From Candidatus Saccharimonadota bacterium (GTDB taxonomy: Bacteria > Patescibacteriota > Saccharimonadia > Saccharimonadales > Saccharimonadaceae): a stretch of DNA of 32,000 nt. Below are positions 1 to 29,663 of the stretch, piece after piece. The stretch spans positions 810,001-842,000 of the forward strand of contig CP006915.1 in assembly GCA_000503915.1 (NCBI GenBank). Reading direction: 5' to 3'. Both the position numbers and the translations under genes were made by a program. Each line of letters begins with the position of its first letter. Position 1 is the stretch's first letter. Under the pieces are notes generated by a model that had not been told where the DNA came from, did no database searches, and was given only the letters and a program-made list of their open reading frames with translations.

Positions 1-3000
1 AACACCAAGATGTTCTCGGACTTTTGCAAGAATAGAGCCGTTGTAGTGAAAAGGCCACCAATTATATTCGCCCGGGTGCTGGTCCTTTTTTGACTCTGCG
101 ATTATGGCCGGTCTTTCGAAATCTAGACTCATTCTCCAAATCTTGTAACAATCATCAAACTTTTTATCGATATAACGCTTAATAAATATATGAAGATGAC
201 TATAAACATGATGGTTATAGTTCTTAATAGCAAAGGGGAGGTATTTTATACTTATAGCGAAGAACTTATCAAAATTGCCATTGTTTTTAATTGGTTCTTC
301 GGGCAGTTTTGCGATGTGCCAAACCAAAGATTCTCTGTGATCTTCTGAGCCATTTTCTAGGAAATCTTTTAACCTATCTTGAATTAGTTTTGGGTTATAT
401 GGGGGCATTGGTCCGCCACGTGCCTTTGACCAATTCCTAAACGCACCCTTTCTGAATTCTGCAAGGAACAGGAGTAATGTATCAAGCTCTTTTAGTGTTT
501 CTTTATCGCCGTGCTTTACGAATATATCAATGACTTCGAGTGCCTGAGACTCATTCATGGTTCTGATTCTATTGAAGACTCGTGCTAAGTGTTGCAAAAT
601 CCCATAATGATAATTTGTCTTATCTTTCAACATAGTGAAAGCAAAGTCTTCTATCCCTTTGGCCGTAGAATATTTCATAAACCAATCCTTACTTTCAGGC
701 ATAGTCGTGTGGCGATTGTTAGCAAGTGCTTCAAGCATTAGTAGTGATAGTTGTCGAACATACAAACTCTCGTCTGTACAGAGCTTTTTTGTGAGTTCAA
801 ATGCACGCTCCGTATAATCTCGCCCTGCAACGGAATTAACGGGCATTAGTATCCAAGCAATACATCCACGCACACTACTGATTTGGATATTATGCTTTCC
901 TTCAACAACGTCCTTATCAAACTCGCTATTTTTCTCAGGGCTTGGATCGGTGATAAAGAAGTCTGCTATATAGAAAGCTTCTTCAAATTTGTGCTTTTTT
1001 GAAAGCTTCTCGGCAAACCAAACGAAGTTCTCCCGTGTTTCAGTATTTGTAATTTTTGCGGCAAGTTTTGCAGCATTACCTGCAATCTCTAGTTCAGGCT
1101 TAACAATATCTAAGTAAATAGTGTCGAGATAGTCGTCAGGCATATCTCTTAAAACTGAACCAAAAACTCTCTGCTGATTCTCGGTCGGCTTATTGGCAAC
1201 TAGTGAACGCAGTATACCTATACCATTGTCGTAATCTTTCTTTAAAACATTGAGGATTGGATCTTTGGCGTCATACGAATGGAATGAGTCAAGCGACTTA
1301 GAGAAGTAATCACCGTGAAGAAATCCCTCTAAAAGGTGAGTACCCTGCTGGAAAGTGTCGTCGTTGCTAATGAGACGCATAATGGATTGAATTACGGTTG
1401 TATCAAACATAATTTGCCGATTCATATAGTCCTCATTCGCTAAAAGATTAGAGAATGTCTCTATGGCCTGCTCGTGTTTTGCCCCCAAGAGCCCCCAAAG
1501 AACCTGATCCATAAATACGTTAATTGGATAGCCAAACTCTTTAATCGCAACATTCAATAAAGTCCATTTTTGTTCGATGCTCAGTGTCTCGGAGTCTCTA
1601 ACATAAAAGAAAATGAGCTCGGCTTTGTGAGGTATGCCTTTCCTCATCTTTATGAATTCAGACAATATTCTAAAAGCTTTTTTATTGCCTTGTTCATATT
1701 GTTCAAGTAAGAATGGAATAAACGCCCTATTCATAAAGTCGGGTTTAGACTCGCTCACTTCGCTGACTTTAAGAGATATATATTTATCAGCAAGCTTCCA
1801 TTTTTTATCAATAGGCAACCTTTTAAGATAGGGCTTGATAATTGTTCTTATAAAGACTCTGTCGTGAACCTCATAATCCCCTCCGAAGTTTGACGTACCG
1901 CCTCCCATCAATTCCCAGCCATCATATTTGATCTTGAACCTCTCATATTGCCGGCTGTATTGATCTGCAAGTTGTTCAAGTAAATAACTAAAACTGCTTG
2001 GTTTAGCTAGCAGGTCATCTCGTAGAATGTCGAAGAACTTGAAGGGTGTTTTATGTGAATATTTATAATCTTCATCGACAATGTCAAAGGTCTCATATAT
2101 ATAGCTAACTATGTCTGCCTTCAAGCGTTCGTTTCCTTTTGAGTATAGTCTATCGAACCCATTGGCGAGCTCACCTAAAAGCCACTCATCACGAGCCTTA
2201 GAGCCACCTTCAATGAATAAGGGGCTTTCCGTTGAGAATGTATAAAGTCGTTTTAACAAGTCAAAGACATCGTCAATGAGTTCATCGGAAGCATCGACGG
2301 CTTTCATTAGAATATCAGCCGTAGACTTAAACTCATACTCTTCCATATTTCTAAAACGAAGCTTTTGAACATTGTCTTTTATGAAGCTAACTATGTATTT
2401 TGCCGAAGCTTCATCGTTTACATTATCTTCAAATATTCTCAACACTTCTCTTGCGTAGTAAGAGCTGAAAGTAGCTAGCCAGAAACTATGCCAAGCAGCG
2501 AGATCTAGGCTATCGGCCTTAGAGATTTCTTGTATGGCAAAGTAATGAAGACCCGAATCAGCAATAACCGCTTTCAGTCTATTTTCGGATTGAAGCCTTG
2601 AGTTATTTGCATTTGTTAGCTCCTCAAGTATCTTATTGACCGTTTCTCTTGCTGTACGCTCGCTGTATTTATAATCGTCTTTCTTTTTTAGCAATTCTCT
2701 TCGGGCTTCTAGCTCATTATCAAATTCAACTTTGGTGTAATTCCCACCTTTTGCAGATCTATCATAAACATTCTTCACTAAAAGGTTACTTATAAGATCG
2801 TCAAGTTCATCGTCGGGTAACCAAGATCTAAATCTTTCACCAACCAGATTTCTGACAATATCTTCATTCATATCTTTATCTACGACCCAAAATTTCACTT
2901 TAGATATTAATTCTAGATGTCTAGTGGTGAACTGGTGCTTTTTAACTAACCGCTCATTTACTTCAGGATAATACTTTGCATTATCAAGATCCTCTTTGAT

Positions 3001-3279
3001 CCGAGGACCTGTGCTCGTACAAATGATTAGAATTTCATCTTGTTCATTAACTAGTGGCAGCGTATCTAAAATGTCGCGAAGCCCAGCATAAGTAACGTGT
3101 GATTTTTTCGACTCGCAAATTATACGCTTATTGCTAAACACAAGAACGAAGTCCGCTAGCTTTGGCTGCTCCAATTCAATTCGTTGAAAAGACTGGTAAC
3201 CACTGTATTGCACAAACAGAGAAAGAGCTGCCCAGTTTTGAGCATTAAAGCCAGCTTGGCTATTCGCACCTTTACTCAT
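1..3279 (-). CDS. Large protein (partial, >=1093 aa; C-terminus beyond left edge) with an N-terminal Cap4/DUF4297-like PD-(D/E)xK nuclease domain and a long alpha-helical (HEAT/ARM-like) repeat body
   Basis: Absent from the supplied ORF track because it has no stop inside the window. Hand translation of the minus strand from the ATG at 3279..3277 stays open to position 1 (3279 nt = 1093 codons). The N-terminus MSKGANSQAGFNAQNWAALSLFVQYSGYQSFQRIELEQPKLADFVLVFSNKRIICESKKSHVTYAGL shows GFxxQ, then D plus a hydrophobic strand, then ExK. The rest is Leu/Lys/Glu/Asp-rich helical sequence with no Walker A noticed. Its ATG overlaps the upstream gene's TGA (ATGA). Confidence 0.7.
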   Translation of the reverse strand, partial: MSKGANSQAGFNAQNWAALSLFVQYSGYQSFQRIELEQPKLADFVLVFSNKRIICESKKSHVTYAGLRDILDTLPLVNEQDEILIICTSTGPRIKEDLDNAKYYPEVNERLVKKHQFTTRHLELISKVKFWVVDKDMNEDIVRNLVGERFRSWLPDDELDDLISNLLVKNVYDRSAKGGNYTKVEFDNELEARRELLKKKDDYKYSERTARETVNKILEELTNANNSRLQSENRLKAVIADSGLHYFAIQEISKADSLDLAAWHSFWLATFSSYYAREVLRIFEDNVNDEASAKYIVSFIKDNVQKLRFRNMEEYEFKSTADILMKAVDASDELIDDVFDLLKRLYTFSTESPLFIEGGSKARDEWLLGELANGFDRLYSKGNERLKADIVSYIYETFDIVDEDYKYSHKTPFKFFDILRDDLLAKPSSFSYLLEQLADQYSRQYERFKIKYDGWELMGGGTSNFGGDYEVHDRVFIRTIIKPYLKRLPIDKKWKLADKYISLKVSEVSESKPDFMNRAFIPFLLEQYEQGNKKAFRILSEFIKMRKGIPHKAELIFFYVRDSETLSIEQKWTLLNVAIKEFGYPINVFMDQVLWGLLGAKHEQAIETFSNLLANEDYMNRQIMFDTTVIQSIMRLISNDDTFQQGTHLLEGFLHGDYFSKSLDSFHSYDAKDPILNVLKKDYDNGIGILRSLVANKPTENQQRVFGSVLRDMPDDYLDTIYLDIVKPELEIAGNAAKLAAKITNTETRENFVWFAEKLSKKHKFEEAFYIADFFITDPSPEKNSEFDKDVVEGKHNIQISSVRGCIAWILMPVNSVAGRDYTERAFELTKKLCTDESLYVRQLSLLMLEALANNRHTTMPESKDWFMKYSTAKGIEDFAFTMLKDKTNYHYGILQHLARVFNRIRTMNESQALEVIDIFVKHGDKETLKELDTLLLFLAEFRKGAFRNWSKARGGPMPPYNPKLIQDRLKDFLENGSEDHRESLVWHIAKLPEEPIKNNGNFDKFFAISIKYLPFAIKNYNHHVYSHLHIFIKRYIDKKFDDCYKIWRMSLDFERPAIIAESKKDQHPGEYNWWPFHYNGSILAKVREHLGV

Positions 3280-4196
3280 TCTATAGTTCCCCCTACACCA
3301 GTAGCTGTTACGCCAATACTACTCGTCTGATCTTCCTCTGCGGGTAGGAGTGTCTCCACTTTAAACTTACTGATCATCTCAGTCTTTACGTATTGCTTTG
3401 CTTCGCCCTTAATTTGCTCCGGCACACCCGACACCGTGTGATTATCAAGTAGCTTGCGTAGGTACATAAAACTCATAATTTCACCTAAAAGTTCTTTTGT
3501 AATATCATTCCCAGAACCAGTATGTTTTTGAACTATGTAGAGTAATTTAGAAGCAAGATATTCATATGGTAGTTCGTGCACGTGATCATCAACTTCAAGT
3601 GTTTTCGCGATTTCTATTAATTCGGATCGTATATGCTCATCAAGGGTACTCCATGTATGGCCATTGTCATATGGCTGTTCATCGAACTTAACTCTCTTAA
3701 AGAATTTATGAATATCCCTTTGTGTGTTTAAAGCCTTTATGTCCAGCTTCGTTTTAAGTTCATCTGCTGCCGCTCGAACAGGTGCGGTCATTGTGATACC
3801 TAATCTGAGCCTATTAGCTGGGCCAATATAGTTATTAATACCGACTCCCAATCCGTTACTAAAGCTTATGAAACCGTCAAAATCTGGTGATTGCTTGGAG
3901 TACTCTAGAAATGCCAAAATTACATCCCTAACTTCAGAAGATTGGCCCTTCTTCTTACCTGAGCTAGTTGAGTCATTTTTAAATGATTCGCCGGTTTTAA
4001 CCTCGTACACTCTTTCTTTTATCGTATCTCCTGATCCCACTCTTATTAAGATGTCTAGCGAGAGCTGATTCTCTTCGATAGGAAAGTCAGTATAAAGTTC
4101 ACGGATTGTTCCTTCTCGTAATTCTTTCAAAAATAAAAGACAAGCCATCTTATCCTGATAGCAGAATCCCAGTCGAGAAGCATATATGGAAGACAT
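3276..4196 (-). CDS. Cap4/DUF4297-like PD-(D/E)xK nuclease-domain protein (306 aa) with an uncharacterised C-terminal domain
   Basis: ORF track. N-terminus RLGFCYQDKMACLLFLKEL...LSLDILIRV...VYEVKTGE matches the GFxYQ / D-hydrophobic strand / ExK layout of the dsDNA-nuclease (DUF4297) family. AT-rich codon usage. Stop overlaps the start of the downstream large gene. Confidence 0.6.
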   Translation of the reverse strand: MSSIYASRLGFCYQDKMACLLFLKELREGTIRELYTDFPIEENQLSLDILIRVGSGDTIKERVYEVKTGESFKNDSTSSGKKKGQSSEVRDVILAFLEYSKQSPDFDGFISFSNGLGVGINNYIGPANRLRLGITMTAPVRAAADELKTKLDIKALNTQRDIHKFFKRVKFDEQPYDNGHTWSTLDEHIRSELIEIAKTLEVDDHVHELPYEYLASKLLYIVQKHTGSGNDITKELLGEIMSFMYLRKLLDNHTVSGVPEQIKGEAKQYVKTEMISKFKVETLLPAEEDQTSSIGVTATGVGGTIE

Positions 4197-4224
4197 CTAA
4201 ACTAATTATACAATCTTATTAACA

Positions 4225-4253
4225 GAAAACAGCGAGACTTACTCGCTGTTTTC
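4225..4253 (-). terminator. Bidirectional-looking hairpin terminator downstream of tRNA-Gln
   Basis: GAAAACAGCGAG-actta-CTCGCTGTTTTC is a perfect 12-bp inverted repeat with A/T runs on both sides. It lies between the tRNA-Gln 3' end and the island operon. Confidence 0.6.
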
Positions 4254-4286
4254 TGAGCCCATTTGGGTCACCTTTGATGTACTACT

Positions 4287-4360
4287 TGGCTGGGGATGAG
4301 GGATTCGAACCCCCGATCACGGGACCAGAACCCGATGCCTTACCGCTTGGCTAATCCCCA
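4287..4360 (-). tRNA. tRNA-Gln (anticodon CTG), CCA encoded
   Basis: Minus strand reads TGGGGAT TA GCCAAGCGGTAAGGC A TCGGG TTCTGGT CCCGT GATC GGGGG TTCGAAT CCCTC ATCCCCA G CCA. It has the U1:A72 start typical of bacterial tRNA-Gln. A TATAAT box lies at 4376..4371, about 11 nt upstream. Confidence 0.9.
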
Positions 4361-4390: not shown

Positions 4391-4579
4391 TGGGGTTCGA
4401 ATGGATTCGACCGACGTTCCGCCGGCTCGAAACTTCGCGACTGAAAGCGCAGCTTTCATCGGAAGGTTTCCTTGCGAATTGCCACCGGCAATCCTCACCC
4501 CGATCACGGGACTCTGGACCTCGGTGCCTTACCCCCGCCTGTCTGTCCGACAGGACGGGCAGGACTTGGCTAATCCCCA
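4391..4579 (-). ncRNA. Structured GC-rich tRNA-Gln-derived element (long form of the tRNA-flank hairpin family); function unknown
   Basis: Minus strand starts TGGGGATTAGCCAAG, 15/15 identical to the tRNA-Gln 5' end. Next comes the hairpin CCTGCCCGTCCTGTCGGACAGACAGGCGGGG, inserted where the D-loop would be, then GGTAAGGCA and CCCGTGATCGGGG (tRNA-Gln-like). About 110 nt of consecutive short hairpins follow (ATTGCC-GGT-GGCAAT, GAAAGC-TGC-GCTTTC, CCGGC-GGAAC-GTCGG, TCGAAT-CC-ATTCGA). The 3' end AACCCCA can pair with the 5' TGGGG. A TACAAT box lies at 4599..4594. Confidence 0.4.
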
Positions 4580-5365: not shown

Positions 5366-6028
5366 CTACTCGGAGCGTTTTAGTTTACGGCTATTTTCCG
5401 TTCGCCACTTAGCGATTTCACCATGGTGACCATTCAAAAGTACGTCGGGTACCTTCATGCCCCGGAACTCAGCGGGGCGTGTGTATTGCGGAAATTCGAG
5501 AGTCTCCCCATCGCTGAAGCTTTCGATTTCAGCGCTTGATTCACCACCAAGTACGCCGGGGATCAAGCGGACAATACTATCGATAATCGTCATGGCTGGC
5601 AGTTCCCCACCCGTTAATACATAATCACCAACGCTAATTTCAGCGTCAACCAGCGCCAGAATACGCTCATCATAACCTTCATAGCGGCCGCATATAAAGA
5701 TATATCCCTGTCCGGAGTTTGCGTATTCTTGCGCGCTACTCTGCTGCCAGCGGTCACCGCGCGGTGTCATAAGCAGCACTTTTGCGTCCGGATCGTTCTG
5801 CTTTGCCTTTTCGATGGCCGCGAATAGCGGCTCGGGCTTGAGCAGCATACCATCACCGCCACCATATGGCGTGTCGTCAACCTGCCGACGCGGCCCAAGC
5901 CCAAAATCACGTAGATTAATCGTTGATAGCTCGACGATACTGTCCTTCTGCGCTTTCCACATCATGGAGTTTTCAAATACGCCCGTAAACATTTCGGGAA
6001 ATAGCGTAATGACTTGGAATTTTCTCAT
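5366..6028 (-). CDS. trmD: tRNA (guanine37-N1)-methyltransferase TrmD
   Basis: MRKFQVITLFPEMF..., YGGGDGMLLKPEP, GRYEGYDERI and GDYVLTGGELPAM are hallmark TrmD motifs. Confidence 0.93.
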   Translation of the reverse strand: MRKFQVITLFPEMFTGVFENSMMWKAQKDSIVELSTINLRDFGLGPRRQVDDTPYGGGDGMLLKPEPLFAAIEKAKQNDPDAKVLLMTPRGDRWQQSSAQEYANSGQGYIFICGRYEGYDERILALVDAEISVGDYVLTGGELPAMTIIDSIVRLIPGVLGGESSAEIESFSDGETLEFPQYTRPAEFRGMKVPDVLLNGHHGEIAKWRTENSRKLKRSE

Positions 6029-6048
6029 CTGTTCTACTCTAGCAGCTA

Positions 6049-6077
6049 TTGACTTTTTTGTCTATATTTGATATAAT
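6049..6077 (+). promoter_or_regulatory. Consensus sigma70-type promoter (TTGACT-17 nt-TATAAT)
   Basis: TTGACT at 6049-6054, a 17-nt spacer, and TATAAT at 6072-6077. It sits upstream of the small ORF starting at 6145. Confidence 0.6.
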
Positions 6078-6144
6078 ATATACACTTTTGCTCAAGCTAT
6101 CTTCGGGCGAAAGGTCACCCTTACTTCGAGACTAGGAGACCTCG

Positions 6145-6345
6145 ATGGATCAACCAGCAGCTCCTCTGCCGTCCTGGACATTTGTCCTCGCCAGCATTAC
6201 GCTCGGAGCATTTGGCGCCTACGCCTTGTTCCTGAACATCAGCATCCGTCCGATCTCCTGGATTGGCACGGCTGCCTCCGCGGTTCTGATTTGCAGCTCC
6301 GTTCCGGTTATTATCTGGACACGGCGTAGCCGGAAATCGCGATGA
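6145..6345 (+). CDS. Small two-TM membrane protein (66 aa) with a basic C-terminus
   Basis: The ATG is preceded by AGGAG (6134-6138) and the consensus promoter. The protein has two hydrophobic helices and ends RRSRKSR. A hairpin terminator follows at 6438-6468. The patch is GC-rich and an antisense ORF is also open, so coding is not certain. Confidence 0.5.
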   Translation: MDQPAAPLPSWTFVLASITLGAFGAYALFLNISIRPISWIGTAASAVLICSSVPVIIWTRRSRKSR

Positions 6346-6437
6346 CTCCCGCCCGCCCACCGAACGCCCGCAGTCGAGCCTCAAAGCTCCTGCGAGACCC
6401 GGTTGCGGGCGTTCTTTATGTCGAAAATTTATCAATC

Positions 6438-6468
6438 AAAAACCCGCCGAAAAGTAGGCGGGTTTTTA
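6438..6468. terminator. Bidirectional rho-independent terminator hairpin
   Basis: AAAAACCCGCC-gaaaagta-GGCGGGTTTTTAAA. Confidence 0.65.
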
Positions 6469-6567
6469 AACATATAAGGCTCTCAACCTTGCCCGGTAGA
6501 GAATTCTACTAGGTCTTAAGTTGCTCGCATAGAGCTCAGTTCTCGCAGGTGTTTGAACTAGTGCTTA

Positions 6568-6999
6568 TTATATATCAAGGTCGTCGAGTTCGGCAAGTTC
6601 TTTACGCGACTTTTTTGCGTAATCTGACTCGTCGTTATTTTGTGAGTTTTCCACAACTTCATCATCATCGTCATCTGTTGCAGTAACGGGTCGGTCATCC
6701 ACAGGCTGGCTTGATGGTTCATCTGATGACATCGTATAGCTCTCGCGCTGGTCGTCATTGTTGACGATCTTGAGGTTGTAACGCGCGTCATTCTTTGTAC
6801 CCAAGGCGCGCAGCAGTGTACGCAGGCTTTGGGCAGTCATACCGCGCTTTCCGATCACCCGGCCCAAGTCCTCAGGGTTGACGGTAAGCGTTAGCAGTAC
6901 GCCTTTTTCATCGATGATCCGGTCGATCGTTACGTCTCCTGGATGCTCGACGAGTGATTTGACGATGTACTCGACAAATTGTTGGTCTATGGTTGTCAT
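6568..6999 (-). CDS. KH-domain RNA-binding protein (KhpA/YlqC-like) with an acidic C-terminal extension
   Basis: VEYIVKSLVEHPGDV...LTVNPEDLGRVIGKRGMTAQSLRTLL carries the GxxG KH core of the UPF0109 family usually linked to rpsP/trmD. The tail is DDDDDEVVEN...ELDDLDI. Confidence 0.85.
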   Translation of the reverse strand: MTTIDQQFVEYIVKSLVEHPGDVTIDRIIDEKGVLLTLTVNPEDLGRVIGKRGMTAQSLRTLLRALGTKNDARYNLKIVNNDDQRESYTMSSDEPSSQPVDDRPVTATDDDDDEVVENSQNNDESDYAKKSRKELAELDDLDI

Positions 7000-7109
7000 G
7001 ATTGCCCTCCTCCGGTCGCTCTATAACTCTACTGTCGTACGAGGCTATTATAACACCAGCGAGCCGAATGAAGCGAAAGTTTACTTGCGCCTCTCTAGGT
7101 GACCTGGTG

Positions 7110-7613
7110 TTATTTTACATTCGAAAGCCAGCCAGAGGCCGCGGTATTTACCCACACATAGAGCGAGCTTGAGCCAAGGCCAAGACTGGCACAAATAGAG
7201 GTTGGGTTATTCGACGAAAGATTGGTTGGTGCCGTTTGCAGCTTGCCATCGTCCTTAATGTAATAGGTATTGCCCGTTTTGCTTTGGCCGACAATCGCCA
7301 TCGTTTGACCCGTCGAGTCCTGGACGCAGTAAAGCATGGCATTATTCGTCGTCACGTAGCTATCGGTATTCACCCGGGCATTCGTAATCGTCATAAACGA
7401 AGTCTGGTCAACCGGATACTTATAGCTATTCGCCACATAGTAGGCATTTAGAGAATCGGCAAGACCCGATATATTACTCTGTACGCGCGTGTCATGGGCA
7501 CGGCTCTGTACACCCGCGTAGGAAACAGTAGTAATTCCTGCCAATATTCCTATGACGACGATGACGATGAGCAGTTCGACAATCGTAAAGCCAACAAAAA
7601 AGCGCTTATGCAT
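7110..7613 (-). CDS. Type IV pilin-like protein (prepilin N-terminal methylation motif)
   Basis: Preferred start is the ATG at 7613, giving MHKRFFVG/FTIVELLIVIVVIGILAGI (a class III signal with G/F cleavage and E+5). The ORF-track start at 7664 adds 17 unlikely residues. Confidence 0.8.
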   Translation of the reverse strand: MHKRFFVGFTIVELLIVIVVIGILAGITTVSYAGVQSRAHDTRVQSNISGLADSLNAYYVANSYKYPVDQTSFMTITNARVNTDSYVTTNNAMLYCVQDSTGQTMAIVGQSKTGNTYYIKDDGKLQTAPTNLSSNNPTSICASLGLGSSSLYVWVNTAASGWLSNVK

Positions 7614-7647
7614 ACCGTTATTGTAGCACGTCTGCCTGCCCAGAATG

Positions 7648-8451
7648 CTACTGTGGACCAGCACTGGCTAAGCTTTGAACCTCACTGCTGCCGAGCGGGC
7701 GATTATATATTCTCACATCGTCAATGGTGCTTGCCAGGAAGGCCGAAACAGTCCCGTTTCCGCCCCTGGCAGCAATACGTAATGCATTGGCATTTGAAGC
7801 AAAGTTTCCGGAACCGCTCAAAGTATACTGCCAAGAACCGTTCAAATACCCTTTGATAGTCGTCCCATCATAAGTAATGACAAAATGCGACCATTGAGCA
7901 CTGCTCGCCACCATCCCTGTATTGCGCCATGCCCAGCCCGGAGAGGTGTTGGCAAATGCATAGTAAATGCTACCATCCGAAATAAGCGCTACTTCGTAAC
8001 TATTTTCTTTATTCATAATTATACAGGGAGTAGTGACGGTACAGCCGCTTATACTTACTGGTTTTAGCCATGCAGCCAAGGTAACGCCAGGAGCACCAAC
8101 TCGAAGGTTGGCGTTATCATTAATATGGATGTAGTCGGAGGTTCCATTAAATACATAGGCCATACCGCTCGCACCATTTGCATTGGTAGTTGTAATGGCA
8201 CCATCCACCGTACCATTATTACCACCCAAGGAGTTATCGGTACCATTGCCGTTCAATTTCCACCAACCCACAATACCACCACTTTCTGTACACGTGCCTG
8301 AGTCCAGTGAACTGCCGGTCGTATAATGACTCACGCTTCCTGACGTGGCGGAAAGACAGTAGGTCGCCCCATCCGTCCCGTATTGATACGTGACTACCGA
8401 TGAAGCCACGTCAATATCAGACAAAGCCGAGGGATAAGTACTATTTTCCAC
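7648..8451 (-). CDS. LamG/concanavalin-A-like lectin domain ORF (267 aa), probably the detached C-terminal body of a pilin-like protein
   Basis: WWKLNGNGTDNSLGGNNGTVDGA...FNGTSDYIHI...LAAWLKP...DDVRIYNRPLGSSEV is a typical Laminin_G_3 pattern. The only start is GTG, and the frame is open upstream to 8484, overlapping the pilin N-terminal ORF in another frame. Confidence 0.6.
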   Translation of the reverse strand: MENSTYPSALSDIDVASSVVTYQYGTDGATYCLSATSGSVSHYTTGSSLDSGTCTESGGIVGWWKLNGNGTDNSLGGNNGTVDGAITTTNANGASGMAYVFNGTSDYIHINDNANLRVGAPGVTLAAWLKPVSISGCTVTTPCIIMNKENSYEVALISDGSIYYAFANTSPGWAWRNTGMVASSAQWSHFVITYDGTTIKGYLNGSWQYTLSGSGNFASNANALRIAARGGNGTVSAFLASTIDDVRIYNRPLGSSEVQSLASAGPQ

Positions 8452-8455
8452 CTTA

Positions 8456-8626
8456 TTAAAGAGCGAGGTTTCGATTGACTTGAGTTAAAGCAGCGTCGAC
8501 AGTTGTGGAACGAGCTCTATCCTGAGTACCGTTATACGCCAGAATCACAACCGTGGCCAAGATAGCAATGATCACGATAACAATAAGGAGCTCAACAATT
8601 GTAAAACCTCTTACGTTTTTTGCCAT
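8456..8626 (-). CDS. Pilin N-terminal segment ORF (56 aa): prepilin leader plus hydrophobic helix, ending in a TAATAA double stop
   Basis: Hand translation gives MAKNVRGFTIVELLIVIVIIAILATVVILAYNGTQDRARSTTVDAALTQVNRNLAL*. It is below the ORF-track size cutoff. It sits directly upstream of the LamG ORF in a different frame. Confidence 0.55.
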   Translation of the reverse strand: MAKNVRGFTIVELLIVIVIIAILATVVILAYNGTQDRARSTTVDAALTQVNRNLAL

Positions 8627-11255: not shown

Positions 11256-11615
11256 ATGAAAGATGTGTTGGATAAAACCCCGAACAAGCTTCGGACTTCG
11301 ACGGTAGCTATTGTAGCTGTCATGAGCGGTATCGCACTTAATAGCTGCACCGCCGCTGACAAAGGAACTGCACCAACTCCCGCCTGTGCTATCCACATTG
11401 AGCGGGGTGATACGCTCTATAGTATCGCCGCTGCGAGCGACATGGATATACGCGAAGGCATTGCCGAGATGAAACAGATTAATTCAGGTGTCGACGCCGG
11501 TCATCTAAGCATTGGAGACGATGTGGCGATCAGCTCACAGATGTGTCAGGATATTATTGGCAACAAAAAAAATACCTTGGATCTGCGCCCACTACACGAC
11601 GATCTCAATCAGTAA
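11256..11615 (+). CDS. LysM-domain lipoprotein
   Basis: Signal peptide with a lipobox (IALNSC), then ERGDTLYSIAAAS...INSGVDAGHLSIGDDVAI, which is LysM-like. Confidence 0.65.
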   Translation: MKDVLDKTPNKLRTSTVAIVAVMSGIALNSCTAADKGTAPTPACAIHIERGDTLYSIAAASDMDIREGIAEMKQINSGVDAGHLSIGDDVAISSQMCQDIIGNKKNTLDLRPLHDDLNQ

Positions 11616-14508
11616 TTACAATACTCACCAGCCGGCCGGGAACGTAAATCGTCTTGGCCGGTTTTTGTGTACCGACAAATTTCTGAACATTTTCATCAGC
11701 CAGAGCCGCCGCGATAGCATCTTCTTTACTGACATCTTTAGCGAGCTCGAGTTTGGCACGTACTTTCCCGTTTACCTGAACAACGATTGTCGCTGTTTCG
11801 CTAGTCGTGAGCGCCTCATCCCACGATGGCCATGGTGCAGTATCGAGCGACTCTTCGTGTCCGAGCTGCTGCCAAAGTTCAGCGCTGAGATGTGGCGCAA
11901 ATGGAGCGAGTAGCTGGGTCATGGTCTCTAATACGTCACGCCATGGTTTATCACTAAATCCATCAGCTTTTAATTTGTATAGTTCATTCGTTGCTTCCAT
12001 CATAGCTGCAATGGCGGTATTGAAACTCAATCGGTGCAAGTCTTCGGTGACTTTTTTCGTCGTCTTATGTTGCAAACGACGAACCGCATCGTCCTGCTGG
12101 GTGTCCGCTACTGTGTCAGCTGCTAGATATTCCTGTGTCAATGTCCAGACGCGCGTCAGGAAACGATAGACACCGGCTAGGCCATTAGTGCTCCAGGCTG
12201 AATCTTCTTCGATTGGACCAACAAACAGCAGGAAGGTGCGTAATGCATCAGCGCCGTAGCCTTGGTCGATAATGTCGAGTGGGTCAATGACATTGCCAAG
12301 GCTTTTACTCATCTTGCGGCCGTCCTCGGCTTGGATCAGGCCGTGGTAGACTAGTTTCTTAACTGGCTCCTTGCTCGGTACCAGTCCCATGTCGTAAAAA
12401 ACGTGATTCCAGAAGCGGACGTAGAGCAAATGCGCGACCGCATGGTCGCCACCAACATAGTAGTCAACCGGTGTCCAGTAGTCGGCCTTTTCTTGCGACC
12501 AGGCTTGCTGGTCGTTCTTCGGGTCGGTGTAGCGCAGCAAATACCAGCTACTACAGGCGTAGCCGTCCATGGTATCAGTTTCACGCTTTGCTGGGCCACC
12601 ACACTCAGGACAGGTCGTATTAACCCAGTCGTCGACGCGCGCCAGCACTGATTTACCGTCACCTTTTGGGGCGTAATCTTCTACTTCTGGCAGCACCACT
12701 GGCAGCTGATCTTCTGGCACCGCCACGGCGCCATCTTTTTCACAATGAATGATCGGAATCGGCGCACCCCAATAACGCTGGCGAGAAATCAGCCAATCGC
12801 GCATTTTGTAGGTGGTCATCATCTTGCCTGTTCCCTGCTCTTCCAGCCAGGCAACAACCTCTTCACGCGCCTCACTCGTCGGCATGCCGTCAAAAGCTCC
12901 AGAATTTACCAGTACACCCTCATTGGCATATACGGCTGTCTTTTGATCTAGATACGCCAGCCATACTTTTAGATGCGTCTGCCAGGTAAGCTTTTTAGCT
13001 ACCTGATCTTTTGTAATCCACTCAATAGTGTGCTTGCCCTCATCAACTTCACTTCTGATTTGAGTTTTTGAGCCAAGCATAACTTCATATGCAGCACCTC
13101 TATAGCGATGATTCACCCCTTTGTCCGGACGATAGGCAATACCGGAAATGATTGGGAAAATTTTTCTGACACTTACAATATCTGTATAGCCCGTCTCCTC
13201 AGCTACTTCCCTACGTAGTCCGTCTTCCGTCGAAGAGTCTTCTTGTTCAATCCCTCCCCCAACGAAGTGCGTATCGGTCACCCCACCTTCTGTTGAAGTT
13301 TGTAGCAAGTAATTACCCTCGCCATCGCAGATGACTGCATCCGCCACGTTTCGATCGATAGTCTCAGCGTCTAACTCTGGCTCAAAGTGATCGCCACTAA
13401 TATGATGCTCAGCAACCACTTGCACTACTGGCAATTTGTACTTCTCTGCAAATTCATAATCACGTTCGTCATGAGCCGGCACAGCCATGATAGCGCCCGT
13501 GCCGTAGCCACCAAGGACATAGTCGGCAATCCAGATAGGAATTTTTTCTCCCGTGGCTGGATTGATGGCATAGGAGCCGGTAAATACACCTGTTTTTTCT
13601 TTGCCTTCACTTTGACGCTCAATCTCAGACTTTTTCAGCGCCGTTTTTACATAAGCGTCGACATTTTCGTGCGTCTCATCAGTCGTCAGTGCCTCGACTA
13701 GCGAATGCTCCGGCGCAATAACCATGAAGGTAGCACCGAAAATCGTGTCGGGACGCGTCGTAAATACGGTGAGCGTTTCATCATGCTCGGCGACCAAGAA
13801 CTCAATCTCGGCACCCTGGCTTTTGCCGATCCAGTTGGTTTGGGCAGTTTTGATCTTTTCCGGCCAGTCGAGCGCCGGGATTTCTTCGAGCAGCGCATCG
13901 GCATAGTCAGTAATCTTGAAAAACCATTGGCGAATATTCTTTTTTTCAGCCAGTGGATCGTCGGGACCATCGTGGCGCCAGCACTTGCCATTGATAACCT
14001 GCTCGTTGGCAAGCACCGTTTGATCGATCGGACACCACCATTGCAACGAATCTTTCTGATAAGCCAGGCCACGCTCAAAAAACTTGGTAAAAACCCATTG
14101 GGTCCAGCGATAGTAGTCGGGGTCGGACGTATTGATCTCGCGCGACCAGTCGATACTGGCGCCGAGCCGTTTTAGCTGATGAGTAAAATTGGCGATATTG
14201 TCTTTGGTCACTTTGGCCGGTGCCATGCCGGTCTTGATCGCGTAATTTTCAGCGGGCAGTCCAAATGCATCCCAACCCATCGGGTTCATGACATTGCGGC
14301 CGTGTGCACGTTGAAAACGGGCAATTGCATCGACAACCGAATGTTCCATAGCATGGCCAGAGTGCATACCGGCGGCACTTGGGTACGGGAACATAGGAGA
14401 AATATAGAATTTTTCCCTATCGCCGCCGTCGCTTGCCTGGTAGCGGCGCTCGTCCGCCCAAACTTTTTGCCAGCCAGGCTCGATCTCACTCGGATTGTAT
14501 CGCTGCAT
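11605..14508 (-). CDS. leuS: Leucyl-tRNA synthetase carrying an internal Nudix-like domain insertion (about aa 366-528)
   Basis: PYPSAAGMHSGHAMEH (HIGH-type), KMSKSLGN, and the CP1 editing region (TTRPDTIFGATFMVIAPEH, AVPAHDERDYEFAEKYKLP). The protein is 967 aa. The insertion contains GGGIEQEDSSTEDGLRREVAEETGY. Confidence 0.93.
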   Translation of the reverse strand: MQRYNPSEIEPGWQKVWADERRYQASDGGDREKFYISPMFPYPSAAGMHSGHAMEHSVVDAIARFQRAHGRNVMNPMGWDAFGLPAENYAIKTGMAPAKVTKDNIANFTHQLKRLGASIDWSREINTSDPDYYRWTQWVFTKFFERGLAYQKDSLQWWCPIDQTVLANEQVINGKCWRHDGPDDPLAEKKNIRQWFFKITDYADALLEEIPALDWPEKIKTAQTNWIGKSQGAEIEFLVAEHDETLTVFTTRPDTIFGATFMVIAPEHSLVEALTTDETHENVDAYVKTALKKSEIERQSEGKEKTGVFTGSYAINPATGEKIPIWIADYVLGGYGTGAIMAVPAHDERDYEFAEKYKLPVVQVVAEHHISGDHFEPELDAETIDRNVADAVICDGEGNYLLQTSTEGGVTDTHFVGGGIEQEDSSTEDGLRREVAEETGYTDIVSVRKIFPIISGIAYRPDKGVNHRYRGAAYEVMLGSKTQIRSEVDEGKHTIEWITKDQVAKKLTWQTHLKVWLAYLDQKTAVYANEGVLVNSGAFDGMPTSEAREEVVAWLEEQGTGKMMTTYKMRDWLISRQRYWGAPIPIIHCEKDGAVAVPEDQLPVVLPEVEDYAPKGDGKSVLARVDDWVNTTCPECGGPAKRETDTMDGYACSSWYLLRYTDPKNDQQAWSQEKADYWTPVDYYVGGDHAVAHLLYVRFWNHVFYDMGLVPSKEPVKKLVYHGLIQAEDGRKMSKSLGNVIDPLDIIDQGYGADALRTFLLFVGPIEEDSAWSTNGLAGVYRFLTRVWTLTQEYLAADTVADTQQDDAVRRLQHKTTKKVTEDLHRLSFNTAIAAMMEATNELYKLKADGFSDKPWRDVLETMTQLLAPFAPHLSAELWQQLGHEESLDTAPWPSWDEALTTSETATIVVQVNGKVRAKLELAKDVSKEDAIAAALADENVQKFVGTQKPAKTIYVPGRLVSIVITD

Positions 14509-22247: not shown

Positions 22248-22374
22248 CTCTTATCCAGGGTTTCACCTTTAACAGATCAAATAAGGCCGGCTTCTATTTT
22301 TGAAGAAACCGGGAGTCATAAATCATACATGCCAATTAAAAAACCGAGGCTAGGCCTCGATGTTTTAATTGGTG
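22248..22374. repeat. Left copy of a ~127-bp direct repeat bracketing the R-M/PurM-like island
   Basis: Aligns by eye at roughly 88-90% identity with 28118-28246: CTCTTAT..CAGGGTyTCACCyTTAACAGATCAAATAAGGCCGGCTTCTATTTTTGAAGAAACCrGGAGTCATAAATCATACAT...AATTAAAAAACCGAGG...CCTCGATGTyTTAATTGGTG. Includes a terminator hairpin. Confidence 0.85.
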
Positions 22375-22474
22375 GAGTTTTACAACTAAGTTCGAGCCGA
22401 ATTTGAGCGCTAGGGCTGAAGCGTAAGCTTGGCCCCGATGCCTGCGGGCGTGTAACGCCCGCTCGTCCCACCAA
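22369..22474. other. GC-rich structured element occupying the tRNA slot next to the left repeat
   Basis: Closed by TTGGTGG/CCACCAA. Internal hairpins are GCGGGCG-ttaca-CGCCCGC and GGGGCC-AAGC-ttac-GCTT-ca-GCCC(T). The minus strand ends CTCCACCA followed by the same downstream sequence as tRNA-Gly(GCC). No cloverleaf could be drawn. Confidence 0.4.
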
Positions 22475-22576
22475 AAAACCCTTTGCCTTATTTTTTATTT
22501 CCCCCACCGAGATTTCTTTTTTAGTTGAAAAGGGTGCCTTCTGGTGGTGGCGTATTGCTTGGCAACTTTGGCGATG

Positions 22577-28124: not shown

Positions 28125-28246
28125 AACAGGGTCTCACCCTTAACAGATCAAATAAGGCCGGCTTCTATTTTTGAAGAAACCAGGAGTCATAAATCATACA
28201 TACTAATTAAAAAACCGAGGGGCAAGCCTCGATGTCTTAATTGGTG
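28118..28246. repeat. Right copy of the ~127-bp direct repeat; contains the tRNA-Gly(GCC) terminator and ends inside the tRNA 3' CACCA
   Basis: Aligned by eye with 22248-22374. The terminator on the minus strand is CGAGG-cttgcc-CCTCG GTTTTTT (28206-28232). Confidence 0.85.
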
Positions 28247-28317: not shown

Positions 28318-28365
28318 ATATGTGATCAGTGATATATTAGTCACTGGATGAAATGTACAAACATG

Positions 28366-28441
28366 AGCTTTCTTGGCCTGGCAACTCTTCACTCTAACAG
28401 CTGACCTGCCCGCCGGGCGTGACAGGCGGGGCTAAACCCGC
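28366..28441 (-). other. Pseudo-tRNA-Gly(GCC) 5' portion with a GC-hairpin insertion in the D-loop (short member of the hairpin family)
   Basis: Minus strand reads GCGGGTTTAGC [CCCGCCTGTCACGCCCGGCGGGCAGG] TCAGCTGTTAGAGTGAAGAGTTGCCAGGCCAAG. The flanks follow tRNA-Gly(GCC) through the TTGCCA anticodon loop. No T-arm or 3' acceptor is present. Confidence 0.6.
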
Positions 28442-28460
28442 ATGTTGTTTTCAAGGAGTA

Positions 28461-28501: not shown

Positions 28502-28532
28502 AAAAACACCGACGCTCTGGTTCGGTGTTTTT
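28502..28532 (-). terminator. Rho-independent terminator after tRNA-Phe
   Basis: Minus strand reads AAAAACACCGA-accagagcg-TCGGTGTTTTT. Confidence 0.75.
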
Positions 28533-28658: not shown

Positions 28659-28813
28659 TCGATTTCCCGTTACGCCTCCTCTCAATTTTTCAAACAGTCG
28701 CTTTGCTCCTTGGTTTAAAAAATTGGGGTGCCGCAACACGGAACGAGAACACTCATCATTGTAGCTAAACTAGGGTAAAATCACAAGTCAAACCTTGCTA
28801 CAATGAACTTAAC

Positions 28814-28858
28814 GCGGGTATCGTATAACGGCCACCCGGGTGACCTTCCCCCGCCTGT
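28814..28858 (+). other. Left half of a split hairpin-family element (acceptor-like GCGGGTA ... CCTTCCCCCGCCTGT)
   Basis: GCGGGTATCGTATAACGGCCACCCGGGTGACCTTCCCCCGCCTGT. Its reverse complement, ACAGGCGGGGGAAGGTCACC, matches the segment after the hairpin in element 4391-4579 (ACAGGCGGGGGTAAGGCACC). An extended -10-like TGCTACAAT lies just upstream. Confidence 0.55.
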
Positions 28859-28860
28859 AC

Positions 28861-28934
28861 GCGAGATTAGTATAGTGGCAGTACGCTTGCTTCCCAAGCA
28901 AGAGGCGCCAGTTCGATTCTGGTATCTCGCACCA
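28861..28934 (+). tRNA. tRNA-Gly (anticodon CCC), CCA encoded
   Basis: GCGAGAT TA GTAT AGTGGCA GTAC G CTTGC TTCCCAA GCAAG AGGC GCCAG TTCGATT CTGGT ATCTCGC A CCA. Confidence 0.9.
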
Positions 28935-28951
28935 AGCATAAGCATTATGAT

Positions 28952-28973
28952 CTCTGTTAATTCAGAGGTTTTT
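28952..28973 (+). terminator. Terminator after tRNA-Gly(CCC)
   Basis: CTCTG-ttaatt-CAGAG GTTTTT. Confidence 0.6.
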
Positions 28974-28985
28974 AAATTATTTGCA

Positions 28986-29014
28986 TTGACAAATATACTA
29001 TTTTAAGTTAAAAT
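28986..29014 (+). promoter_or_regulatory. Consensus promoter TTGACA-17 nt-TAAAAT for the winged-helix ORF
   Basis: TTGACA at 28986-28991 and TAAAAT at 29009-29014. A strong SD, AAAGGAGGTG, lies at 29041-29050. Confidence 0.65.
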
Positions 29015-29055
29015 ATGATAACTTCACCTATCTCTATTTGAAAGGAGGTGAAGAG

Positions 29056-29460
29056 ATGGAGATGACCCAGTCAATCAAGCTGGTCGGAAAGCCCGAAGAC
29101 GTCATCCGAGATGCAACACTGCTGCAAGAGTTCTTGGAGGGTCTGGAGACTGCCGCGGGCGAGATCCCCGATGTCGGCAATCACCAAGAGTGGCCGACAT
29201 ACGTCGATGGGCTTCTGGAGTTCCAGGGCGCTAGCGTGACTGTTTCCGAGAAGCTCGGACGTACGCTGTCGATCCTCCTGTATGCTCATGGCTCACTGGT
29301 CACGCGCAAGACACTCCAAGACATCGTTGTCGAAGAAGGCAAGAAGCCCAACGAGGCACTAGTGCGGATATCACGTCTGCGCGCACTGCTGTCGAAGGAC
29401 ATGCCTAGACTCGAGATCGAGTCAGTGGGTACCGGCTACAGGCTCAAGATCGTCGACTGA
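29056..29460 (+). CDS. Small protein with a C-terminal OmpR/PhoB-type winged-helix DNA-binding domain (no receiver domain)
   Basis: The ATG at 29056 sits 5 nt after AAGGAGGTG (the ORF-track TTG at 29038 is less likely). The C-terminus LSILLYAHGSLVTRKTLQDIV...EALVRISRLRALL...IESVGTGYRLKI follows the Trans_reg_C pattern. Codons are GC3-rich (about 60% GC in a spot count), unlike the neighbours. Confidence 0.7.
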   Translation: MEMTQSIKLVGKPEDVIRDATLLQEFLEGLETAAGEIPDVGNHQEWPTYVDGLLEFQGASVTVSEKLGRTLSILLYAHGSLVTRKTLQDIVVEEGKKPNEALVRISRLRALLSKDMPRLEIESVGTGYRLKIVD

Positions 29461-29617
29461 CAATCAGTTCCTCCATCCCATCACCCTCATGAAAGGAATG
29501 CACCCTCTGGGAGCCCCTCAAATGAGGGTGCTTCCATATCTGACAAAGTTCTAAGTGTGTCGGTGAGGGGGCACCAAAATACGAGACGGGAGGCAAGGTT
29601 GAGACAGGAGTTCGACT

Positions 29618-29663
29618 CCCCGCCTGTCTGTTCGACAGAACGGGCAGGTCCTTACCCGCACCA
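29618..29663 (+). other. Right half of the split hairpin-family element: complete GC hairpin plus a tRNA-like 3' end TACCCGC-A-CCA
   Basis: CCCCGCCTGTCTGTTCGACAGAACGGGCAGGTCCTTACCCGCACCA. The hairpin differs at 2 positions from the 4532-4563 copy. TACCCGC is the exact complement of GCGGGTA at 28814-28820. Confidence 0.55.

Follow-up and report, generated by a model that had tools for sequence, protein, structure and literature searches.

The window analyzed here comprises 32,000 nucleotides (nt) of the genome of Candidatus Saccharibacteria bacterium RAAC3_TM7_1 (845,464 bp), i.e., positions 810,001 to 842,000 of contig CP006915.1, and is numbered from its first letter. Within this window, the stretch 28814–29663 is a native tRNA-Gly(CCC) gene of 76 nt that three independent insertions have disrupted: a 101-nt unit with a foreign tRNA-Gly(CCC) in the anticodon, a 644-bp cassette with a gene for a winged helix-turn-helix (wHTH) protein, and a complete 30-nt hairpin in the T stem. 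Very probably, the native gene was destroyed stepwise by small mobile DNAs; the steps follow from natural alleles, while the mechanism is a proposal. The relatives compared were metagenomic contigs and assemblies labelled L002–L159, and the contigs of close relatives (L152, L157, L158 and L159) were reached via orthologues of an adjacent gene encoding 125 amino acids (aa).

A Native tRNA-Gly(CCC) Gene Interrupted in Its Anticodon and T Stem

The stretch is composed of the following parts, where hpL and hpR denote the left and right copies of the 30-nt hairpin.

28796–28804 (+): extended −10 promoter-like TGcTACAAT of the native tRNA-Gly(CCC), read from the sequence; also before the gene in L152, L157, L158 and L159
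28814–28849 (+): native tRNA-Gly(CCC) nt 1–36, i.e., acceptor 5' strand, decayed D arm, anticodon stem 5' strand, and loop to the second anticodon base
28850–28858 (+): hpL 5' arm CCCGCCTGT, identical to nt 1–9 of the 30-nt hairpin, with the same junction in L159; followed by linker AC (28859–28860)
28861–28934 (+): foreign complete tRNA-Gly(CCC), CCA encoded (ARAGORN; Rfam, 67.7 bits)
28935–29578 (+): wHTH cassette, 644 bp, with trailer AGCATAAGCATT, terminator, promoter, ribosome binding site, open reading frame (ORF) and a tail ending in AAGTGTGTCGGTGAGGGGGCACCA
29579–29593 (+): linker ATACGAG and hpL 3' arm, the latter (ACGGG-AGG) at 29586–29593 with one base deleted
29594–29618 (+): native tRNA nt 37–61, i.e., third anticodon base, anticodon stem 3' strand, variable loop, T stem 5' strand, T loop and C61
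29619–29648 (+): hpR, complete 30-nt hairpin CCCGCCTGTCTGTTCGACAGAACGGGCAGG, between C61 and U62 of the T stem, without target duplication
29649–29663 (+): native tRNA nt 62–76, i.e., T-stem remainder, acceptor 3' strand TACCCGC, discriminator A and CCA

Joining of 28814–28849, 29594–29618 and 29649–29663 yielded a 76-nt tRNA-Gly(ccc) in ARAGORN, a call that was obtained before any allele was known. Among the controls, random three-piece joins gave a call in 1 of 3000 cases and joins with a shuffled middle piece in 0 of 3000. Positions 31–76 of the join aligned without a break over both junctions with tRNA-Gly genes of relatives (BLAST, 85% identity, E = 8e-8). At the anticodon junction, the end of the 5' piece (TGACC-TTCC) pairs with CAA-GGTTG at 29594–29601, and the native piece 29594–29618 is 100% identical to L152, L157 and L158. 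Deletion of hpR alone joins AGGAG-TTCGACT-C to TCCT-TACCCGC-ACCA, which gives a perfect T arm, the acceptor 3' strand and CCA. The native D arm reads ACCCGGG in the window versus ATTATG in the intact gene of relatives.

The 744 bp inside the anticodon (28850–29593) begin with nt 1–9 of the hairpin and close with its final 9 nt, of which one base is missing. A suffix as near to the hairpin arm as this 3' remnant was found at 2.2e-4 of positions in an anchored test. The native TGcTACAAT has no −35 element and was hence not in the promoter scan list.

Natural Alleles Represent the Empty, Intermediate and Final States

Three states of the locus were found. In state 0 (L152, L157 and L158; flanks 92–95% identical), the site holds an uninterrupted 75-nt tRNA-Gly(CCC) without any hairpin module; this gene has the same TGcTACAAT upstream and the same hairpin downstream, and it is collinear with the three native pieces of the window. 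The allele is the empty site. In state 1 (L159), the anticodon contains only the 101-nt unit, CCCGCCTGT-AC-[foreign tRNA-Gly(CCC)]-ATACGAG-ACGGGCAGG, with both arms perfect. L159 carries neither the wHTH cassette nor the T-stem hairpin, and the CCA of its foreign tRNA is directly followed by ATACGAG. State 2 (window, L064 and L066) additionally shows the 644-bp cassette directly after the foreign CCA, a T-stem copy of the 30-nt hairpin and the loss of one base from the right arm, and the lengths add up (197 + 644 + 30 − 1 = 870). The foreign tRNA, which is 64% identical to the native tRNA-Gly(CCC), is present in L159 and absent from L152, L157 and L158, and hpR is missing at exactly the same point from all four. 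The alleles thus show three steps of insertion: the 101-nt unit, the cassette and the T-stem hairpin.

Exact-protein look-ups had at first returned only near-identical strains with the arrangement of the window. The synteny of the neighboring Ddl gene, whose product is 69% identical to proteins of Saccharimonadales metagenome-assembled genomes, was tried as a source of empty sites and was uninformative, as eight Saccharibacteria species of GTDB have an SPFH gene and no hairpin between Ddl and tRNA-Phe.

Two independent assemblies share the interrupted arrangement. L064 has the same junctions as the window, and L066 differs from it at 13 aligned positions, one of them inside the element (in the foreign tRNA), with all junctions identical. 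Since the independent L066 keeps every junction in spite of these differences, the arrangement is not an assembly artefact.

The L064 contig (GCA_003537595.1) ends at window position 29591 and L066 starts at 28520, so that both break at or near element junctions. These breaks are consistent with repeats or strain heterogeneity at a hotspot.

An earlier note on this DNA, made from its letters, had proposed an 81-nt hairpin-family element that was split by a single 759-bp GC-rich insertion at a 10-bp core, CCCCGCCTGT, taken as a target-site duplication or att core. This 10-mer occurs without mismatch at 28849–28858 and 29618–29627, with further copies at 4533–4542 (+) and 28422–28431 (−), and the join left by deletion of 28859–29627 has the 7-bp terminal stem and ends in ACCA. 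However, ARAGORN called no tRNA in this join, and no natural allele matches it: in L152, L157 and L158, the real pre-insertion unit is a plain 75/76-nt tRNA-Gly(CCC) that lacks both the hairpin and CCCCGCCTGT. L159 has the left junction with its copy of the 10-mer but no right-hand hairpin and no right copy. The two 10-mers are alike because each is the start of a hairpin copy preceded by a host C, and they mark the 5' ends of two different copies rather than the halves of one; they are neither a target-site duplication nor an att core. What had been taken for a single 759-bp element consists of AC, foreign tRNA, cassette, linker, right arm and 25 nt of native tRNA (29594–29618), i.e., it mixes three insertions, one of which is a separately mobile cassette. 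As proposed, a hairpin copy is interrupted, albeit the one in the anticodon, whose arms CCCGCCTGT (28850–28858) and ACGGG(C)AGG (29586–29593) bracket foreign DNA; the intact copy at 29619–29648 is not the partner of its left half. The tRNA-Gly(CCC) placed 2 nt past the left 10-mer was recovered by ARAGORN and Rfam at 28861–28934, and the insertion of mobile DNA into a tRNA-like target was borne out. In all, the model of a single split is refuted by the alleles.

The wHTH Cassette Is a Separate Insertion at tRNA 3' Ends

The terminator and consensus promoter that had been read behind the foreign tRNA were found as a terminator-like site at 28949–28970 and a near-consensus, promoter-like TTGACA-17-TAAAAT at 28986–29014. 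The ORF at 29056–29460 (134 aa) corresponds to RAAC3_TM7C00001G0955. The proposed OmpR-type wHTH fold at about 60% GC was matched insofar as a winged-helix (OmpR/HilA-type) hit was obtained and the ORF has 57% GC, but the hit is weak: Pfam Trans_reg_C scored 24.2 bits, below the cut-off of 26.2 bits, and NCBIfam was weak too. Sequence searches of the protein against PHROGs and PDB yielded nothing useful. The segment as a whole is not GC-rich, since its 51% GC equals the level of the core genome (50.5%), and a foreign origin by composition was ruled out on the same grounds. The tail described as structured is modestly more structured than its shuffles (z = −2.15) and did not match any known RNA family. 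A phage or viral origin was considered and rejected, as BLAST against phages returned tRNA matches only and viral contigs lacked the hairpin.

The cassette is flanked by a 7-bp direct repeat, GCACCAA, and copies of it (window ~28930–29581; 83–92% identical) occur in other contexts in L067–L071, L150 and L151, although not as the 759-bp unit that had been suggested. In L151, it directly follows an intact tRNA-Gly(TCC), forming a tRNA-Gly + wHTH unit without hairpin arms. In L070, it follows a tRNA-Gly 3' fragment inside a tandem array of single-gene cassettes, in L067 it adjoins an IS1595 transposase, and in L071 it lies between tRNA-Gln-like 3' ends. Unrelated cassettes in L070 have the common right end AAGTGTGTCGGTGAGGGGGCACCA, and every unit that follows starts with the tRNA-Gly trailer AGCATAAGCATT. 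Because its copies lie in other contexts, several of them at tRNA 3' ends, the cassette is a separate insertion aimed at tRNA 3' ends.

Integron cassettes normally lack promoters, and their systems comprise attC sites with R''-L''/L'-R' boxes, the integrase IntI and an attI site. The wHTH cassette carries its own promoter-like site; no integrase was detected among the window ORFs scanned, and no attC-like boxes were recognized by eye.

The L070 array (5749–8473) lies between tRNA-Gly(TCC) and tRNA-Arg(TCT) and contains the wHTH gene, an HD/YfbR-like gene, and genes for a small GC-rich peptide and a 145-aa protein. Each of its junctions reads ...GCACCA followed by AGCATAAGCATT, the right end AAGTGTGTCGGTGAGGGGGCACCA is present in three cassettes, and partial tRNA-Gly and tRNA-Arg 3' ends are interspersed.

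A Dispersed 30-nt Hairpin Enriched in Loops of Redundant tRNA Genes

Of the 78 loci that matched the hairpin in a metagenome scan, about 24 form a clean family, C-CCGCCTGTCTGTyCGrCAGrACGGGCAGG, the rest being GC-rich coding noise. The contigs of the clean family have 37–47% GC and wholly different flanks. Together with the four window copies, these loci provide eight sequence variants; the hairpin is exactly 30 nt long, with 93% column identity, 95.5% of its stem positions paired, and compensatory C-G/U-A changes at the top of the stem. The hpR sequence, with an 11-bp stem (z = −4.25), has 11 identical copies in metagenomic contigs. As had been noticed, the hairpin recurs in the element at 4391–4579; the copy at 4534–4563 and hpR, both on the plus strand, differ at two positions that make up one compensatory pair. 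The plus strand of the hairpin folds at −17.4 versus −14.8 kcal/mol as RNA and about equally as DNA (−7.9 versus −7.1 kcal/mol). A strand-specific hairpin was rejected, as both strands fold and the asymmetry thus says little for RNA over DNA.

All four window copies (4/4) lie in tRNA-derived DNA. Three independent insertions into the D loop at TAGC^TCAG were found in L123, L147 and L103 (inverted in L103), and in L103 an identical uninterrupted tRNA-Arg 14 nt away serves as a paralogous empty site. In L081 and L097, the hairpin sits in pseudo-tRNA-Ile copies beside the true tRNA-Ile in the spacer of the rRNA operon. Relative to the sense of the tRNA, it is inverted in El1 (see below), L081, L097 and L103 and direct in hpL, hpR, El3 (see below), L123 and L147; it also occurs in non-tRNA intergenic DNA. 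The insertions of hpR and in L103, L123 and L147 are precise, with no duplicated bases. Thus, the terminal inverted repeats and target-site duplications of miniature inverted-repeat transposable elements are lacking, the whole unit being one hairpin. Its presence/absence polymorphism was observed at the T-stem site (window versus L159, L152, L157 and L158) and in the tRNA-Arg pair of L103.

Apart from intergenic DNA, the hairpin was seen in no other place than tRNA copies that are redundant or dead, a confinement that is expected if insertion into sole-copy tRNAs is lethal. When it was deleted in silico at all family loci, a tRNA was restored only in L081; therefore, most carriers are decayed. 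No Rfam family matched the hairpin. Taken together, this palindromic repeat of Saccharibacteria is dispersed and mobile, encodes no enzyme and is strongly enriched in loops of redundant tRNA-gene copies.

An orthologous intergenic site carries one hairpin in L120/L149, a hairpin and a 25-nt spacer in L132/L145, a hairpin and a partial second copy in L126, and two hairpins 25 nt apart in L100. This variation indicates local turnover or tandem accretion. In L147, a gene for an 83-aa GIY-YIG nuclease (2060–2450; Pfam E = 8e-15) lies between the hairpin-bearing 5' fragment of tRNA-Arg(TCG) and an intact tRNA-Arg; here, too, a mobile unit has left a partial copy of a tRNA next to a functional one.

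Related Elements of the Window and an 88-nt Companion Module

Two further elements of the window belong to the same context.

4391–4579 (−): El1, decayed tRNA-Gln paralogue just upstream of the true tRNA-Gln (4287–4360), with blocks identical to tRNA-Gln
28320–28443 (−): El3, 124-nt insertion before tRNA-Gly(GCC), with a 26-nt hairpin variant (28405–28430), decayed tRNA-Gly(GCC) pieces and a promoter-like stretch

On the minus strand, the initial 16 nt of El1 are those of the adjacent tRNA-Gln, and more identical blocks follow. It carries the 30-nt hairpin (4534–4563) in its D loop, inverted relative to the tRNA sense, and an 88-nt module (4409–4496) in its T loop. Neither the deletion of both modules nor brute-force single or double deletions restored a tRNA in El1. 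Its plus strand starts with GGGGTTCGAATGGATTCGAC, like the 5' end of a tmRNA, yet ARAGORN and Rfam (E ≤ 10) reported none; the likeness is due to the T-loop-like sequence in the tRNA-Gln paralogue. El3 starts with the first 11 nt of tRNA-Gly(GCC), and a 13-nt repeat of the 5' end of this tRNA (GCGGGTTTAGC..) lies on either side of it. L152 does not have El3, its flanks being joined there with an overlap of 13 nt, and the El3 orthologue in L123 contains the canonical hairpin and the 88-nt module.

Copies of the ~88-nt module were found at window 4409–4496 (−), in L081 and L097 (two each), and in L123. Its form is GAG-hairpin-CGCAAGG...GAUGAAA-hairpin...CGAAG...GGUCGCGGAACGUGACC, and of 33 predicted pairs, 16 show compensatory changes in the six copies. 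It occupies the T loop or position 26/27 of pseudo-tRNAs, and many carriers of the hairpin have one. Rfam yielded no match to the module. An assignment as hammerhead ribozyme (CUGAUGA...GAAG) was rejected, as the helix topology does not fit and Rfam gave no match.

Proposed Course of Events and Its Alternatives

As the alleles show, the 101-nt unit, a tRNA minigene within two 9-nt hairpin arms, entered the anticodon between its second and third bases. The promoter-bearing 644-bp wHTH cassette, with GCACCAA on its flanks, then inserted directly behind the foreign CCA, and the complete 30-nt hairpin inserted into the T stem (C61/U62) without target duplication. We propose that the hairpin is a non-autonomous palindromic mobile element that is moved in trans and prefers loop-encoding positions of tRNA genes, and that the 101-nt unit is a member of its family which carries cargo and moved in one piece. 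We favor this one-piece origin of the unit. The foreign tRNA-Gly(CCC) is a predicted functional replacement, and the unit may have survived in the anticodon of tRNA-Gly(CCC) since it supplies a working tRNA-Gly(CCC), so that the cognate match of foreign and host tRNA would reflect a survivorship filter. The foreign tRNA comes without its own promoter and in all likelihood relies on the native TGcTACAAT, which would now drive it. The transcript would be released by RNase P and 3' processing, and the hpL arms can still pair around the foreign tRNA. The dead native halves would decay, as in the D arm, and gather more hairpins.

Several observations weigh against this proposal. The alleles of states 0 and 1 are known from short metagenomic contigs (1.0–1.9 kb). 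As the earlier note had stated, the inserted DNA (28850–29593) encodes no recombinase, only the tRNA and the 134-aa wHTH protein, so that any mobilization would occur in trans; at 18 hairpin loci, the neighbors up to 4.5 kb away proved to be common core genes, and neither an integrase nor a transposase, RAYT or HUH enzyme recurred among them. A second cargo-carrying hairpin unit was not found in ~0.7 Mb of related loci, where searches for cargo-carrying hairpins or solo half-hairpins returned chance-level matches only. In addition, tRNA-Gly(UCC) could read GGG, and the survivorship argument is weaker if tRNA-Gly(CCC) is dispensable. Finally, since none of the alleles seen has a bare hairpin in the anticodon, a one-step and a two-step origin of the unit are not separable.

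In a two-step origin, which is the idea of the earlier note, the hairpin as integration target, with its boundaries set right, a hairpin would first have entered the anticodon loop, and the tRNA minigene (AC, tRNA and a few nt) would later have entered the hairpin at about nt 9–13, either by a trans-acting enzyme targeting hairpins or by illegitimate recombination. This course is possible and deserves serious consideration, as hairpins do insert alone into tRNA genes (into the T stem of this very gene and into D loops of L103, L123 and L147), the right linker ATACGAGA loosely resembles the apical-3' part of the hairpin TTCGACAGA, as expected if most of it was kept, and a tRNA-Gly + wHTH unit without hairpin arms exists in L151. 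However, the site has not yielded a bare-hairpin allele, exactly 9 + 9 nt of the arms were kept while the central 12 nt were replaced and not merely split, and none of the other ~30 hairpin copies is interrupted. The identical anticodon of incoming tRNA and host gene, which the survivorship filter of the one-piece origin would account for, is left unexplained by two steps. That the hairpin and the 88-nt module are RNA-level features, i.e., introns or elbow expansions of working tRNA-like genes, is improbable, even though 16 of the 33 module pairs are compensatory in only six copies, the carrier in L081 keeps a paired acceptor stem by a compensatory change and has the anticodon arm of the true tRNA-Ile, and the D, anticodon, variable and T loop sites agree with the positions of archaeal non-canonical introns. 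The hairpin occurs in both orientations and in non-tRNA intergenic DNA, each carrier adjoins an intact cognate tRNA and many are truncated or decayed, the anticodon insertion of the window holds a terminator and a protein gene, and Rfam showed no intron or ribozyme match (E ≤ 10).

A classical tRNA-targeting island, i.e., a tyrosine-integrase element in the anticodon loop whose hairpin-like ends are incidental, is very improbable. It is true that tRNA genes are the usual targets of genomic islands and that displaced tRNA fragments mark island ends, as stated in PMC4383910, and that the window has island-like features, namely the low-GC block at tRNA-Gln and a 5.9-kb restriction-modification block with 120-bp repeats. 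Nevertheless, neither the inserted DNA nor the window ORFs scanned include an integrase, the element of state 1 is only 101 nt long, and both of its ends match the hairpin arms (9/9 and 9/9 in L159). Moreover, a whole divergent tRNA (64% identical) is supplied instead of a matching 3' part, and both native halves remain.

Returning to the one-piece, cargo-carrying origin, it is conceivable, if speculative, that the 101-nt 'hairpin-armed tRNA minigene' represents a new minimal mobile element which overwrites a resident tRNA via its anticodon. Together with the 30-nt hairpin and the 88-nt module with its covariation, it would then belong to a set of enzyme-less structured modules of the Candidate Phyla Radiation (CPR) that home to tRNA-gene loops, maybe via a folded single-stranded tDNA or RNA intermediate.

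Comparison with Known Systems

Small palindromic dispersed repeats include the repetitive extragenic palindromes (REPs) with their RAYT transposases, the Rickettsia palindromic elements (RPEs) and the GC clusters of yeast mitochondria. Like REPs and their mosaic forms (BIMEs), RPEs and GC clusters, the hairpin is a non-coding, 30-nt GC-rich imperfect palindrome in an AT-richer background. As with REP/BIME-type repeats, many near-identical copies have unrelated flanks and are polymorphic in presence between close strains, and the hairpin shares with RPEs and GC clusters the ability to reside within structured-RNA genes. Unlike REPs, it has no 'GTAG' head, and no RAYT or HUH enzyme was found near copies (18 loci). 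A strong preference for tRNA loops in both orientations, and one copy whose arms enclose a complete tRNA gene, further set it apart from REP-type repeats.

Insertion sequences that target REP or attC hairpins are known, e.g., IS1397/ISKpn1 and the IS110/IS1111 family. If the two-step origin were right, foreign DNA would similarly have entered a palindromic repeat specifically; in contrast to these insertion sequences, the inserted DNA has neither a transposase nor insertion-sequence ends, and a single interrupted hairpin is known. In Thermoproteales archaea, transposable non-canonical tRNA introns occupy D-, anticodon-, variable- and T-loop positions. The situation is similar here in that short related sequences lie at these sites of several tRNA genes. 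It differs in the use of both orientations, in the redundant or decayed carriers beside intact genes, in the bacterial host, and in that no bulge-helix-bulge motif or splicing system was identified.

Islander-type islands with tyrosine integrases (PMC4383910) share with the present case the tRNA target, the restoration of function by the incoming DNA, which is predicted here, the displaced fragments at the boundaries and the tandem accumulation at tRNA 3' ends (the L070 array; the GCACCAA repeat here). They differ in their integrase and in their size of kilobases, compared with 101 nt to 0.64 kb of incoming DNA; moreover, the whole tRNA is replaced here by a divergent copy nested in the anticodon, and both old halves remain.

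The closest kinds are thus the REP/RPE/GC-cluster repeats and the tRNA-targeting islands, and what is new is the tRNA-loop preference, the hairpin-armed minigene in a cognate anticodon and the covarying 88-nt companion. No description of either repeat was found in the paper on the RAAC3 genome or in the CPR publications searched. Mobile elements of CPR bacteria are poorly known, and the locus offers a rare natural time series, fully resolved into empty, intermediate and final state, for very small non-coding mobile DNAs of this group. It illustrates that tRNA genes act as hotspots in these reduced genomes, where tiny insertions of at least three kinds meet, and that a tRNA gene is replaceable by a foreign copy nested in its own anticodon. 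It also defines two unannotated families, the 30-nt hairpin and the 88-nt module, which would otherwise be misread as pseudo-tRNAs, tmRNA-like fragments or assembly noise; both, and the enzyme that moves them, are now open to systematic search.

Other Features of the Window

The block at 4.4–21.6 kb has ~50% GC and carries core genes (TrmD, S16, RNase III, NusB, LeuRS and a MurF-like protein). For this reason, the host genome is taken to have ~50% GC, and the low-GC stretches are regarded as islands. A low-GC block (36–42%) at 1–4286 abuts the 3' end of tRNA-Gln (4287–4360), with the decayed tRNA-Gln paralogue on the other side, and it may be an island that brought its own tRNA-Gln. The 306-aa ORF at 3276–4196 within this block had no Pfam match.

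A direct repeat of ~120 bp, 95% identical, at 22256–22374 and 28127–28246 (trailer and terminator of tRNA-Gly(GCC)) brackets the 5.9-kb restriction-modification block, whose genes encode an AlwI-type restriction enzyme, a fused D12-class methyltransferase, a small membrane protein, a PurM-like protein and tRNA-Gly(GCC). The block looks like an integrase-less island at a tRNA 3' end. A tRNA-like sequence with the end CCACCA follows the first repeat copy at 22375–22480; single or double brute-force deletions did not produce a tRNA call from it.

Just upstream of the true tRNA-Phe, a 5' part of a pseudo-tRNA-Phe with a distinct D-loop hairpin (GGCTCTTTAGCTC[CTryGTGAAACGCAAGTAwTC]GTAGAGCAGAGGCC) is present in L002 (11873–11935), L152, L157 and L158. 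L159 lacks this 5' part, and in the window an unrelated sequence takes its place; the leader region of tRNA-Phe is thus polymorphic too. The leucyl-tRNA synthetase gene (11605–14508, −) encodes an inserted NUDIX domain (aa 387–511), and a comparable nudix insertion was described for the Ile-tRNA synthetase of an SR1 genome in the RAAC genome paper.

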